The translations under genes and the position numbers were made by a program. A DNA stretch of 31,406 nt, counting the filler, from Candidatus Woesearchaeota archaeon (GTDB lineage Archaea > Nanobdellota > Nanobdellia > Woesearchaeales > WJIZ01): the NCBI GenBank assembly GCA_018221205.1. It is 2 parts of 2 records of this genome, joined end to end, with 100 filler letters (N's around TTAATTAATTAA, not from the genome) between each part and the next. Parts side by side here need not be neighbours in the genome. Positions count along the whole stretch, not along the records: positions 17,109 to 31,406 come from JAAOYF010000026.1; 1 more part is not named here. One strand, written 5' to 3'. The notes beneath the pieces are model-generated. The model was not told the DNA's origin and did not search any database. It saw only the letters and a program-made list of their open reading frames with translations. Shown piece after piece: positions 16,787-31,406 of the stretch; position 1 is the stretch's first letter, and each line of letters begins with the position of its first letter.

Positions 16787-16948
16787 ATATATTCTATTAT
16801 CTTTATTTTTATAAATCAAATGGGCTTTCATGATAAAATGACACACATCAAAGCTTCTAGCGGAACTTTTACCCTACAATCACCGGGTACCCATAGAATC
16901 AGGTATGGTCCAGGAAAGTCAATATCAATACTTGGACCTAATTTTAAT

Positions 16949-16994
16949 GCGAGCGTAGCGAGCACAGGGGTTTAATTCCCCGACCTTTAGGTCG
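16949..16994. repeat. GC-rich palindromic element at the contig end (REP-like or IS200/IS605-end-like)
   Basis: GCGAGCGTAGCGAGC followed by GGGGTTTAATTCCCC and the hairpin CGACC-TTTA-GGTCG, about 15 bp from the assembly break. Confidence 0.5.
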
Positions 16995-17008
16995 ACTTCT
17001 TAGAAATA

Positions 17009-25938: not shown

Positions 25939-26241
25939 GTGCTTAAAATAGAAAAAAGCATAAAGCACGATCGCTACCTTGAAGACCTATTCCAGAGGCT
26001 ATCTTCTCAATATGATATCATCCTGAAAAACGTCCCGCTCTATTCAAAAAGAAAAAGAAAAGTTGCAGAGATCGATATCCTTGCGTGTAGAGATGGTGTC
26101 TGTGATATCTACGAAGTGAAATGCAGTCACCGAATAACGAAAGCGAGAAAACAATTGAGAAAGATTGAGAAGCTGCTTCCATCAAAAGTAAGATCATCAT
26201 TCTTTTTCTGTGGAGAATCAGGCTTATTGACAGTGATCTAG
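25939..26241 (+). CDS. small PD-(D/E)XK nuclease-fold protein
   Basis: AEIDILA...IYEVKCS...KARKQL motif order, GTG start, convergent with thrS. Confidence 0.7.
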   Translation: MLKIEKSIKHDRYLEDLFQRLSSQYDIILKNVPLYSKRKRKVAEIDILACRDGVCDIYEVKCSHRITKARKQLRKIEKLLPSKVRSSFFFCGESGLLTVI

Positions 26242-28103
26242 CCGACAAAGATCGGCCTTCTGCTTAATTCTTTAGGCAGTGCCAGTGGATAGAACGGCAT
26301 GTCTTTTGTTTCCTTCTTGACATGATCCATCAAGCTTTTGACATCCATCTCAACGAGATCTTTCTGTCCTCGGATTCTGACTGGAAGCTTGCCTGATGCC
26401 TTCTCTTTCTCACCAATGACGACGATGAGAGATGCCCATTCCCTCTCAGCTTCTCTTATCTTTTTGCCGACATGCAATGTCCGATCATCAAGATCAGCTC
26501 GGATACTGTTCTTCTTCAACTCATCAACAAGCTGATTAGCATCTTGAGTAAAACTCTCTGAGACAGGAATGACTCTCACTTGGACAGGGCTCAACCACAT
26601 CGGAAGCTTACCCACTTTGCCTGCTTTCTGATCAAAGGCTGCTTTCTCGAGCAGCGCATACATCACTCTTTCGATGGCACCAGAAGGGCTGCAATGCAGC
26701 ACCAGAGGATGCTTCTGCTTGCTATCCTTATCAGTGAACTTCATATCATATCTTTCGCCATTCTCGATATCGATCTGGTCTGTGCTCAAAGCAGATGCCT
26801 TGTCAAGCGTGTCGACAAAATTGAATTCATATTTCAAGATAAAATAGAATATCCGTTCATCCCACATCTCTAAAAGAATGGGCTTGTTTAATTTCTTCAC
26901 CAATCCAAAGATAAAATCTTTATTCTTCTCGAAGAAATCCTTCGTTGTTCGAAGTGCCATCTCGACATCTTCATCTCCTAGTCCCATATTATTCAGGACG
27001 CTTAAGCAGAGGTCAAATCTGATCTTGAACTCATCCATGGCTTGGTTGATGTCCGCGACCAGAGCATGGCAATCAGGCATGGTGAATGCACGCAACCTTC
27101 GCAACCCTGTCAGCTCTCCGCTCTGTTCTCTCCGGAAAGAATATCGTGTCATTTCATAGAGCTTAAGGGGAAGGTCCTTATAGCTGATTGTCGCATCATG
27201 CGCAATCAGGAACTGGCCGAAGCAGGCAGCAAATCTCAAGAAGAATTTCCTCTTATCAGAATCGATCTGATATTGCCGTGCAGGAAACCGCTGAAGATAT
27301 TTTGATAATGATGGGTGATTCATATCATACATGATCGGAGTTTCCACTTCCACTCCCCCATATTCAATAACTCGCTTATTGACATACTCCTCGATCAGCT
27401 TCTTCACCAACCGTCCCTTAGGATAATAACGCATGTTGCCGCCATCAGAAGCAGGTTCATAATCGACCAATTCAAGTTTCCTCATGAATTTGACATGGGG
27501 GGGCTCTTGATCTACAGCTCGTTTCTTATCTTTCTCATAAAACGCAAATTTCTTCAGTTTTGGATGGTTGGAATAATCAAATTTATCCACTTCATGGAGC
27601 TCGCCTTCTGGAGTCAGGATGTGCCAATAGCTTGTAAGCTTCCGCTCTTTCTTCAAAGAATCAGTCTCATCATCTTTTTTCGCATCTCCAGGGCCAAACT
27701 CTCTGCTCAGCTCTGCTAAGGGATGGCCTTTGACGCTGATATTGAAGGATTTATACCATCCAAAGGGACTGCGATGGACAGCATAGTCATTCTTCAGCTC
27801 TTTTTCCATGCCATCAAGCACTTGAAGTGCAGTATCCGGCTTGGAAGGAGTATTCGTCAGATGGACATAAGGATAAAGCACGATGGTCTTCTCTTTCACT
27901 TGGTCAGCGATATCTTTCACATGGCCGATGGCTTGCTTGATGATATCTTTTGGATTAGCTTCATCTCTCTCCTCGACAGAGAGAAACACCACTAAGCAAT
28001 TCTCGACCTTCTCTTTCTTGTTTTTCAGTTCCTCGGGTTGTTTGATAGCTTTCTTCTTCGCCTCGAACTCAATAAAGTCAGAGTGGAGTGCTAATAGTTT
28101 CAT
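26238..28103 (-). CDS. thrS: threonyl-tRNA synthetase, archaeal type with N-terminal editing domain
   Basis: LYPYVHL and RSPFGWYKSF...KGHPLAELSR (archaeal editing domain), LRFAACFGQF, FRREQSGE, FTMPDCH, LHCSPSGAIER and an anticodon-binding domain. Confidence 0.97.
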   Translation of the reverse strand: MKLLALHSDFIEFEAKKKAIKQPEELKNKKEKVENCLVVFLSVEERDEANPKDIIKQAIGHVKDIADQVKEKTIVLYPYVHLTNTPSKPDTALQVLDGMEKELKNDYAVHRSPFGWYKSFNISVKGHPLAELSREFGPGDAKKDDETDSLKKERKLTSYWHILTPEGELHEVDKFDYSNHPKLKKFAFYEKDKKRAVDQEPPHVKFMRKLELVDYEPASDGGNMRYYPKGRLVKKLIEEYVNKRVIEYGGVEVETPIMYDMNHPSLSKYLQRFPARQYQIDSDKRKFFLRFAACFGQFLIAHDATISYKDLPLKLYEMTRYSFRREQSGELTGLRRLRAFTMPDCHALVADINQAMDEFKIRFDLCLSVLNNMGLGDEDVEMALRTTKDFFEKNKDFIFGLVKKLNKPILLEMWDERIFYFILKYEFNFVDTLDKASALSTDQIDIENGERYDMKFTDKDSKQKHPLVLHCSPSGAIERVMYALLEKAAFDQKAGKVGKLPMWLSPVQVRVIPVSESFTQDANQLVDELKKNSIRADLDDRTLHVGKKIREAEREWASLIVVIGEKEKASGKLPVRIRGQKDLVEMDVKSLMDHVKKETKDMPFYPLALPKELSRRPIFVG

Positions 28104-28240
28104 CTTCTATCACTTCCTTTGCGAACGAAGTGAGCGCGTGGTGCTTTAGCACCACTATTTTCGTTAACGTTTTTAATTTCGCTTGCGAAATTCAAAAGGT
28201 TAAACTCGATGAAATCTGAATGCAACGCTAAGAGTTTCAT
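28100..28240 (-). other. duplicated, synonymously re-coded thrS 5' end (13 codons) plus a palindromic insert, forming a 46-codon upstream ORF coupled to thrS
   Basis: ATG AAA CTC TTA GCG TTG CAT TCA GAT TTC ATC GAG TTT (28240-28202) and thrS ATG AAA CTA TTA GCA CTC CAC TCT GAC TTT ATT GAG TTC both encode MKLLALHSDFIEF. The upstream frame ends at TGA 28102-28100, overlapping the thrS ATG. Confidence 0.9.
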
Positions 28241-28277
28241 AAAAGAAATGAATTGATAAAGGATTTATAAAACTTAC

Positions 28278-29884: not shown

Positions 29885-29932
29885 AAGACAGCAAAACAGA
29901 GCAGGATATAAAAAGGTTAAGAAAAAAAAGAA

Positions 29933-29949
29933 TGGGCCCGCGGAGATTT
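29933..29949 (-). repeat. displaced variant copy of the tRNA-Ile 3' end (T-loop end, T-stem, acceptor strand, discriminator)
   Basis: TGGGCCCGCGGAGATTT versus TGGGCCCGGTGAGATTT at 30815-30831 (15/17 identical), followed on the minus strand by TTCTTTTTTTT. Confidence 0.8.
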
Positions 29950-30119
29950 TCCGGCAAAAGCATAATCTGACTTAAGAACACTAGACATTTTCTCTGTGCG
30001 TAGGGTATATAAATCAAAAAAAGCCATTTCAATCACATAGGAGATATTCAACTCTCAAATCATGATTTCAGAAAAATCATTTACAGAGTTTCATTGTATT
30101 TAGCAAATGGTGATTAAAA

Positions 30120-30833
30120 ATGATATTTGATTTAACGTCAATTAATTTCAGTAGTTCAGACAGAAAGAAGGGGCTGGCTTTGCCGAGAAAAATGAGCATA
30201 GATTTAGCTGAAGAAATTGGGATTCATATCGGCGATGGAAGTATGAACATCTATTCCAAAAAAGGATTCTATCAGCTTCGTGGCCATATCCATGATGACA
30301 AACCTCATTACTTGAGAAGAATTTCAGAATTATACAAAAAACTGTATAATATCGATGTAAACATTCGAAATATGCCTTCAACAGGAGTAATTGGATTTCA
30401 AGTATGGAGTGATGCGCTCGTTGAATTCAAAAGCAGTATCCTAAAGCTTCCACTAGGCAAAAAAACGGACATCAGAATTCCTAAAGTGATTGATAGCAAA
30501 AAGTTATTTTTTGCATTTATGCGTGGATTATTCGATACAGATGGATGTTTATATCTAGAGAAAAGGAACTATGTATATTATCCACGAGTAGAGATCAGAA
30601 TGGCTTCTGAATCATTACGGAACCATATCATTACCCTATCACAGAAATATGGGTTGCCTATAAAGCATTTTAGATTCAAAAGAAAAGAAAAAAACTGGGA
30701 GGACATATGTACCTTACGATTAAATGGTTTACCAAGTCTCAAGATATGGAATAATCTTATCGGAACAAATAACCCAAAACACCAAAGAAAAATGCGTTTA
30801 TTGAGTAAAAAAGGTGGGCCCGGTGAGATTTGA
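30120..30833 (+). CDS. free-standing two-motif LAGLIDADG (DOD-type) homing endonuclease
   Basis: LAEEIGIHIGDG and FMRGLFDTDG motifs with its own GGTGAT RBS and no intein splicing motifs. The 3' end overlaps tRNA-Ile in antisense. Confidence 0.9.
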   Translation: MIFDLTSINFSSSDRKKGLALPRKMSIDLAEEIGIHIGDGSMNIYSKKGFYQLRGHIHDDKPHYLRRISELYKKLYNIDVNIRNMPSTGVIGFQVWSDALVEFKSSILKLPLGKKTDIRIPKVIDSKKLFFAFMRGLFDTDGCLYLEKRNYVYYPRVEIRMASESLRNHIITLSQKYGLPIKHFRFKRKEKNWEDICTLRLNGLPSLKIWNNLIGTNNPKHQRKMRLLSKKGGPGEI

Positions 30834-30907
30834 ACTCACGACCTCACGATATCAGCGCAACTCTGGCATATCAGTCGTGCGCAATAGCCAGGCTATGCTA
30901 CGGGCCC
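30815..30907 (-). tRNA. tRNA-Ile(GAU) with an 18-nt intron at 37/38 (intron 30851-30868)
   Basis: Acceptor GGGCCCG/CGGGCCC+A, anticodon stem CACGA/TCGTG, loop CT-GAT-A^A and T-arm GTGAG-TTCAAAT-CTCAC. Confidence 0.92.
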
Positions 30908-30988
30908 ATGATAAAAAGGGGGACTGAGGAGCTTTGCTCCGAACGTCGCCCGCTTTTTACGAGATTTTTTGCAAAAATCTCCCATCGA

Positions 30989-31092
30989 CGCCCCCTCCCA
31001 GATTTGAACTGGGGACCTTGTGATGACTGTAGCGGATATAACAGTTTCGTAGGTTTAAACCACACACGCTCTAACCGCTAAGCTAAGGGGGC
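30989..31092 (-). tRNA. tRNA-Asn(GUU) with two introns: 17 nt at 30/31 (31046-31062) and 14 nt at 37/38 (31025-31038)
   Basis: Acceptor GCCCCCT/AGGGGGC+G, spliced anticodon arm TGTGA-CTGTTAA-TCACA and T-arm CCCAG-TTCAAAT-CTGGG. Both introns form BHB motifs, giving a 73-nt mature body. Confidence 0.9.
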
Positions 31093-31119
31093 ACAAGAAT
31101 TTTAGGTTCTAAATTTGAT

Positions 31120-31404
31120 TTATAAACGTTTCGAATAAATATTCTGAACCTTTACCAAATGTTTCGGATTATTCATTCCAATGAGTTTCATCCATAAATC
31201 AAGATTTGTAAATCCGGGAATTTCTAGCCTAAAATGTATTGCTTTTCGAGAAACGGAACCGTAGAAGCCCAAACCTCTTAGCCTTTGTATGATTCCAACT
31301 AGGAAAGTCCGCGATTTGCTAGCTATCTCTAATCTTGGATAGTAAGGATTCTCTCTATGTTGCCTACTTAGTACGACACAACCATCAGTATCAAATAACC
31401 CCCT
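31120..31404 (-). CDS. second LAGLIDADG homing endonuclease, C-terminal part (5' end outside the window)
   Basis: Hand-translated as RGLFDTDGCVVLSRQHRENPYYPRLEI...LWMKLIGMNNPKHLVKVQNIYSKRL*. It shares RGLFDTDGC, YYPR.EI and W..LIG.NNPKH with 30120-30833. Confidence 0.88.
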   Translation of the reverse strand, partial: RGLFDTDGCVVLSRQHRENPYYPRLEIASKSRTFLVGIIQRLRGLGFYGSVSRKAIHFRLEIPGFTNLDLWMKLIGMNNPKHLVKVQNIYSKRL

Positions 31405-31406
31405 CA

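Follow-up and report, generated by a model that had tools for sequence, protein, structure and literature searches.

A doubled, silently divergent thrS start flanking a hairpin insert in a Woesearchaeota genome, and its possible origin by end replacement

The thrS locus and its doubled start

The stretch of DNA analysed here (the window, 31,406 nucleotides) is made up of two contigs of the Candidatus Woesearchaeota genome G000, namely C73 and C74, joined across a gap of N's. C74 harbours thrS (26238..28103, minus strand), which codes for an archaeal-type threonyl-tRNA synthetase of 621 residues with an editing domain (PF08915). Codons 1 to 13 of this gene occur twice on the minus strand, as copy 1 (28202..28240), likely the native and now displaced start, and as copy 2 (28065..28103), likely imported, whose start is in frame with thrS. 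Both encode the peptide MKLLALHSDFIEF, and they differ at nine of the 13 codons (10 nt), all differences being synonymous. Only 23 of the 108 single changes possible in the thrS start are silent, and nine silent codon changes are expected by chance with a probability of about 9e-7; when sets of 10 changes were simulated, none out of 400,000 kept the peptide, in each of two mutation models.

The copies are separated by a 98-nt insert (28104..28201, minus strand), consisting of a hairpin cassette of about 80 nt and an SD-bearing leader for copy 2. A TATA box (28264..28271, minus strand) lies 23 nt 5' of copy 1, at the position of a leaderless-type promoter. From copy 1, an upstream ORF of 46 codons devoid of Thr codons (28100..28240, minus strand), a predicted relay frame, stays open up to a TGA that overlaps the thrS ATG (ATGA). 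The doubled codons with their silent differences and 98-nt spacing, the argument that a simple duplication should not diverge in this way, the TATA box and the overlapping upstream frame had all been put forward in the original prediction, drawn from the window alone, and were reproduced. Its two hairpins are also present, the second as GTGGTGC/GCACCAC (28138..28155), seen in the insert sequence, and the first in a longer form than had been given, with 19-nt arms that are 89% complementary (28164..28203). A third hairpin (28110..28133, minus strand), predicted to pair with and bury the SD-like motif GGAAGTGAT (28109..28117, minus strand, 5 nt upstream of the thrS ATG), had been missed. The insert further contains a 15-nt module (28121..28135, minus strand) that is common to other cassettes and to tRNA introns of relatives, and of which a variant form is found in an IS200-type left end.

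Compared with shuffled sequences, the insert has a folding z score of -3.7 as RNA and -4.7 as DNA, with a range of -3.3 to -5.0 over both strands and both chemistries, and its folding energy shows no strand bias. In the predicted fold, seven of the nine bases of the SD-like motif have an unpaired probability of 0.0 to 0.1, and the ATG of copy 2 reaches at most 0.06, that of copy 1 lying at 0.75 to 0.84. A 16S 3' end for pairing was sought in the assembly and none was found, and the motif is only SD-like. An Rfam search gave no match on the insert, and its use as a DNA query against 41 genomes yielded no full-length homologue, the best match having an E value of 0.001 over 22 nt. The viral contigs gave no match to the thrS start pattern, and so no viral attP was seen. 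With regard to sequence support at the junction, a contig of run X1, which may be the source sample of G000, corresponds to 27657-28194 without a single difference; it covers copy 2 and 91 of the 98 insert bases, copy 1 lying outside the match.

Single starts in relatives and the provenance of the two copies

The starts of thrS were gathered from 61 and 401 related genomes, from metagenomes (119 of about 420 stretches) and from a GTDB collection (51 loci), giving 161 distinct starts whose flank measures 45 nt or more; it reaches 300 nt in 151 of them and 1 kb in 98. A same-strand upstream copy of the start was found in one of the 161, that of G000 alone; the other 160, three genomes of the same family included, are single and represent empty alleles. 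In 130 of the 161, a TATA-like motif lies 16-32 nt before the ATG, as at copy 1. No LAGLIDADG gene was found upstream of thrS among the 161 starts (98 of them with a flank of 1 kb or longer), two regex matches being look-alikes as judged by eye. Of the two kinds of allele named in the original prediction, the empty ones are abundant and those bearing LAGLIDADG were not seen. The start pattern matched in 31 of the 401 genomes, with two matches in G000 and G008 only; the 401-genome tallies for thrS and tpiA include G137, G212 and G214 as single-start rows, and no claim depends on these alone. In L005, whose start is among the 161, an inverted copy of the thrS start (2512-2555), identical at 43 of 44 nt, lies about 600 nt upstream and in frame inside another ORF; being in mid-ORF and on the opposite strand, it was discounted, and is a probable amplification or assembly chimera. 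The doubled start is a derived state and not a conserved leader, since one in 161 starts is doubled and copy 1 is the promoter-proximal one with the better host codon fit; the alternative of a universally conserved leader, raised beforehand, does not hold.

That codon fit was assessed against 590 host genes, giving a log-likelihood of -9.4 for copy 1 and -12.7 for copy 2 (ln ratio of 3.2 in favour of copy 1), and against the body of thrS, giving -9.3 and -15.0, respectively (ln ratio of 5.7, again favouring copy 1), both on the strength of nine codons. The upstream copy is also the more host-like, though weakly, at tpiA (0.95), cdc48 (0.23) and metK (1.26), so that the sign is alike in four out of four genes, with a sum of 5.7. 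Judged by sequence, copy 1 is likely the allele of the host and copy 2 that of a donor, although no donor was found. Nine homologues with the same peptide show 3-10 nt differences, and the 10 differences between copies 1 and 2 stand at the top of this range, for which reason copy 2 is better read as the ordinary allele of another species than as the specially re-coded start that had been proposed, the silent character of the differences remaining as described. Among 163 homologues compared with both copies, 61 were nearer one and 72 the other, with 30 ties, and neither copy is favoured.

Doubled gene ends, LAGLIDADG genes and hairpin modules elsewhere

Peptide and DNA repeat scans of G000, with gene identities by Pfam, revealed the same layout at tpiA (C12), cdc48 (C14) and the genes for a DRG-type GTPase (drg) and a GH57 protein (both on C1), the latter with three starts and two inserts; the genome-wide look for repeated ends advised at the outset was in this respect productive. 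The repeat scores of thrS, tpiA and drg amount to 53-70, where the best of 482 random pairs reached 35. For each of the six 5' inserts that have hairpins only, the frame opened by the displaced start runs across the insert and terminates between -3 and +8 nt from the next ATG, and a joint shuffle null for six open coupled frames out of six gives 1.8e-4 with fixed length and 3e-6 with random frame. The number of differing codons between repeats over the six loci forms a gradient of 0, 0, 0, 5, 5 and 9, the coding repeats of drg (35 nt) and GH57 being identical. At tpiA, two overlapping contigs of run X1 span both copies and the insert with no differences. The tpiA start is doubled nearby in one of the 46 genomes with a match, and a same-site series leading from nuclease-bearing to hairpin-only forms was not found among these 46. 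Duplicated 3' ends likewise flank hairpin inserts at C1:54961 and C12:2336, and also at C1:22936, behind a tRNA. By eye, these three 3'-end inserts are all oriented against the gene, and the 5' inserts with recognisable modules are oriented with it. Two tRNA genes (C39:199 and C44:17639) each have a partial copy broken by a hairpin insert.

G000 contains 11 LAGLIDADG_3 matches. At metK (C40, L256), a LAGLIDADG gene of 285 aa separates the orphan start MAKITYFTSE from the real start MTKISYFTSE; its stop codon shares an ATGA overlap with the latter, and no hairpin cassette is present in this element. An orthologue with 63% identity, also behind an orphan start, occupies the metK start of G032 (C16, L266), which belongs to another family; among the metK loci of relatives, 39 of 40 look empty, L148/L266 being the occupied one. 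The same gene and site in distant hosts with a patchy presence would fit what homing predicts, on the evidence of these sequences. The two metK copies of G032 resemble one another more than they do those of G000, so that a donor copy is not carried far.

Duplicated tRNA ends likewise enclose LAGLIDADG genes on C34, on C39 and in the window (29925-29949 and 30807-30831). In the window (29925-30907), the gene (30120-30833, plus strand) runs antisense to an intron-bearing tRNA-Ile and overlaps its 3' end, and the 3' end of the tRNA is partly repeated on the far side of the gene. The following region (30918-31406) holds a family-A hairpin cassette between two tRNAs, together with a second LAGLIDADG gene that is broken by the contig end and resumes on C38. 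A hairpin TGATTT..AAATCA is found near the start of six of the nine free-standing LAGLIDADG genes examined (on C1, C38, C39, C63, C72 and C74) and is possibly a shared translational or operator element. In two other genomes, related LAGLIDADG genes (L267 in G040 and L268 in G080) overlap the start of another gene, which we take to resemble peptidyl-tRNA hydrolase 2; no doubled start was seen at these two loci.

About 43 hairpin clusters in G000 are assembled from exchangeable modules, and several interrupt tRNA genes. A profile of the family-A cassettes (11 members) returned 42 matches at E<=10, the thrS insert not being included. Exact matches to the 15-nt module of thrS were obtained in 10 of 121 genomes, against none for the reversed control; those in G007, G016, G105 and G107 lie within tRNA inserts or next to them, and further ones belong to other intergenic hairpins. 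Long hairpin-rich tRNA inserts with G000 cassette modules were also observed in the T-loop or D-loop in four related genomes (L225, L245, L246 and L247). At 12 G000 contig ends, one of them in the window (16942-17008), an IS200-type left end has a variant of the 15-nt module as its tip, and a repeat resembling an IS200/IS605-type right end stands at 13 contig ends, the element body being absent from the assembly. Given these two sets of contig ends, the body has probably been collapsed out of the assembly. A left end of this type precedes a Y1 transposase in G003, G144 and G082. The 15-nt module, the only one that the thrS insert shares, ties it to tRNA introns and to the IS200 end. A 56-nt alignment of the insert to the IS end was set aside, as it is carried by the 15-nt module and its extension adds about 5 score points; both the TTAAT target preceding the IS end and the subterminal IS hairpin are absent at thrS. 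In the G000 assembly (94.8% complete, with repeats collapsed), no Y1 transposase and no reverse transcriptase family was detected, nor was any match to the tyrosine integrase PF00589. Mini-hairpin motifs of the GNA type (GCGNAGC/ACGNAGT), which are described as stable in the form of DNA (PMC13037366), fall 14 to 1 on the strand that runs against the cassette orientation in 33 cassettes whose copies are not independent, hinting at a single-stranded DNA stage.

Probable end replacement, a predicted translation relay and the alternatives

We consider it very probable that an end-replacing insertion took place after codon 13 of thrS. This part of the original prediction is borne out by the 160 single starts, the more host-like copy 1 and the intact LAGLIDADG form at metK in G000 and G032. 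It is also probable, on the model of the predicted fold and frames, that the old start was kept as a relay frame passing ribosomes to the new one. To the whole chain of end-replacing insertion, relay and nuclease, we would give an even chance. In this scheme, a unit composed of cassette, SD and codons 1-13 would enter behind host codon 13 by homologous repair, with codons 1-13 as the left homology arm and the gene body as the right one, the duplication acting as both arm and rescue. The break would be supplied by a free-standing LAGLIDADG enzyme, working in trans or formerly encoded by the cassette with about equal probability. Both copies would have been functional until recently, which may be why only silent sites differ. 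A leaderless transcript would load ribosomes at copy 1, and these would unwind hairpin 3, terminate at the ATGA overlap and reinitiate on thrS, with no need of an intron or intein; occupied alleles would survive only where the old start relays ribosomes.

No nuclease-bearing allele of thrS was found in the 98 starts flanked by 1 kb or more, the collection including 119 of about 420 metagenome stretches, and the thrS insert was not among the best matches listed for the LAGLIDADG-leader hairpin profile; the earlier view of a homing cassette that had lost its nuclease gene is thus a conjecture. The repeats of drg and GH57 have no coding differences, as expected from a plain target duplication, and such an event around the thrS insert would also agree with the gradient of divergence among the loci; long target duplications have been described for restriction-modification genes (PMC2853133). 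An orphan copy, however, could not gain 10 silent and no replacement changes by mutation alone, so that a second event with an end exactly at the repeat would be needed, and the Haemophilus influenzae example given in PMC2853133 has near-identical duplicates (44/46). For thrS, we regard target duplication as improbable. A HUH engine (Y1, IS200-type) is a somewhat better candidate, if still an unlikely one: the cassette would be a single-stranded DNA hairpin element, and a small circle with the cassette and a captured gene start would integrate by one crossover in the homologous start of another lineage. The variant of the module at the IS200-type tip, the Y1 genes behind such ends in three relatives and the strand bias of the mini-hairpins, in copies that are not independent, speak in its favour. 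Nevertheless, the 15-nt module alone is common to the insert and the IS end, TTAAT is lacking at thrS, the folding energy is without strand bias, and the assembly holds no Y1 gene, though the IS body has probably been collapsed. IS200/605 transposition is not known to make target duplications.

The remaining explanations carry little weight. The structure of the insert, which is predicted to mask the SD and the start codon, could belong to an evolved regulatory leader for threonine sensing or ThrRS autoregulation, but the other 160 thrS starts, three of the same family among them, lack the leader, its 46 upstream codons contain no Thr, unrelated genes have the same layout and Rfam gives no match, so that this very improbable reading is already largely refuted. 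Splicing of the insert from RNA at a bulge-helix-bulge, or its bypass, might instead bring copy 1 together with codon 14. Related cassettes are indeed tRNA introns in G000 and its relatives, one at L225 showing a bulge-helix-bulge by eye. Yet at thrS none of seven candidate motifs would excise 137 nt, and no suitable motif was seen at tpiA, drg or the second GH57 insert (GH57b); the formal matches at cdc48 and the first (GH57a) derive, all except one, from a self-complementary 4-mer in the repeat, and copy 2 comes with an ATG and SD of its own. We see hardly any probability in this. A chimeric assembly of two strains, to which copy 1 and its junction, uncovered by run X1, might point, has the least of all, as an assembly join would not account for six genes in which a unique structured insert coincides with an open, coupled frame, and the X1 contigs match copy 2 with 91 insert bases here and the complete arrangement at tpiA.

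End replacement followed by relay has its nearest described counterparts in fungal mitochondria, where endonuclease elements bring a foreign gene end, as in atp6 of Allomyces macrogynus and atp6, atp9, cox2 and nad3 of Glomus (PMC3630166), and where free GIY genes are duplicated together with the atp9 N-terminus (PMC7487136). In the cases described, as at thrS, the insertion lies in a conserved gene end, the foreign end differs mostly in DNA, the native end is orphaned and splicing is not involved; the metK element is a close match to those of PMC3630166. The thrS case differs in its archaeal chromosome, its 5' end, its 13 codons, the absence of an endonuclease gene (no ORF in the 98 nt) and an orphan predicted to be in use as a relay. 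For the 16S rRNA of Thermoproteales, co-conversion with an adjacent homing intron is reported to be the means by which short hairpin and remnant introns moved (PMC4496867); these are also archaeal nuclease-free hairpin inserts beside LAGLIDADG elements and provide a model for movement in trans, but as described there they are spliced at a bulge-helix-bulge and lie without duplication, and no such motif fits thrS. The inserts of PMC2853133 resemble that of thrS in a direct repeat of more than 30 bp and the lack of mobility genes, and differ in carrying restriction-modification genes between near-identical repeats. The ATGA overlap, the SD within the upstream frame and the structured initiation region recall the translational coupling by termination-reinitiation and upstream-dependent unfolding described in PMC6728339, unlike which the upstream frame of thrS is the gene's own displaced start. 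In the literature covered, which was incomplete, no account was found of archaeal hairpin inserts lying between two silently divergent copies of a gene start.

Two other kinds of mobile DNA invite comparison with the thrS unit. Integrase-driven islands insert in and restore gene ends such as prfC, dusA and trmE; they share with thrS an element that brings a replacement end, and are set apart by the lack of a tyrosine integrase in G000, the length of 98 nt and the many target genes. IS200/IS605 ends and REP-type hairpins are substrates of HUH/Y1 enzymes, and resemble the cassettes in the 15-nt tip module and the strand-biased GNA mini-hairpins; the thrS insert departs from IS200/IS605 by lacking the subterminal hairpin and TTAAT, and its repeat is long and diverged.

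If the proposed reading is true, end duplication with translational coupling would be a third route, beside introns and inteins, for selfish DNA in essential prokaryotic genes. As nuclease-bearing (metK, tRNAs) and nuclease-free forms (thrS, tpiA, cdc48, drg and GH57) coexist in one genome, the question of mobility can be tested, and the doubled starts offer natural test cases for termination-reinitiation on leaderless archaeal mRNA. More tentatively, and with somewhat less than even confidence, we propose that DPANN archaea host tiny non-coding selfish elements made of swappable hairpin modules, which would be natural nuclease-free "cleave and rescue" passengers, crossing species and swapping gene-start alleles. 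They would do no harm where they are spliced from tRNAs as introns, where they lie between genes, or where they sit in essential gene ends with a foreign spare start and an obligatory relay frame. For annotators, such loci are a warning of wrong starts and false short ORFs. As a minor observation on the same genome, C64 (4496-18900) holds about nine paralogues in tandem, a series that ends in TSHAAIVSRE, presumably a PEP-utilising-type motif.
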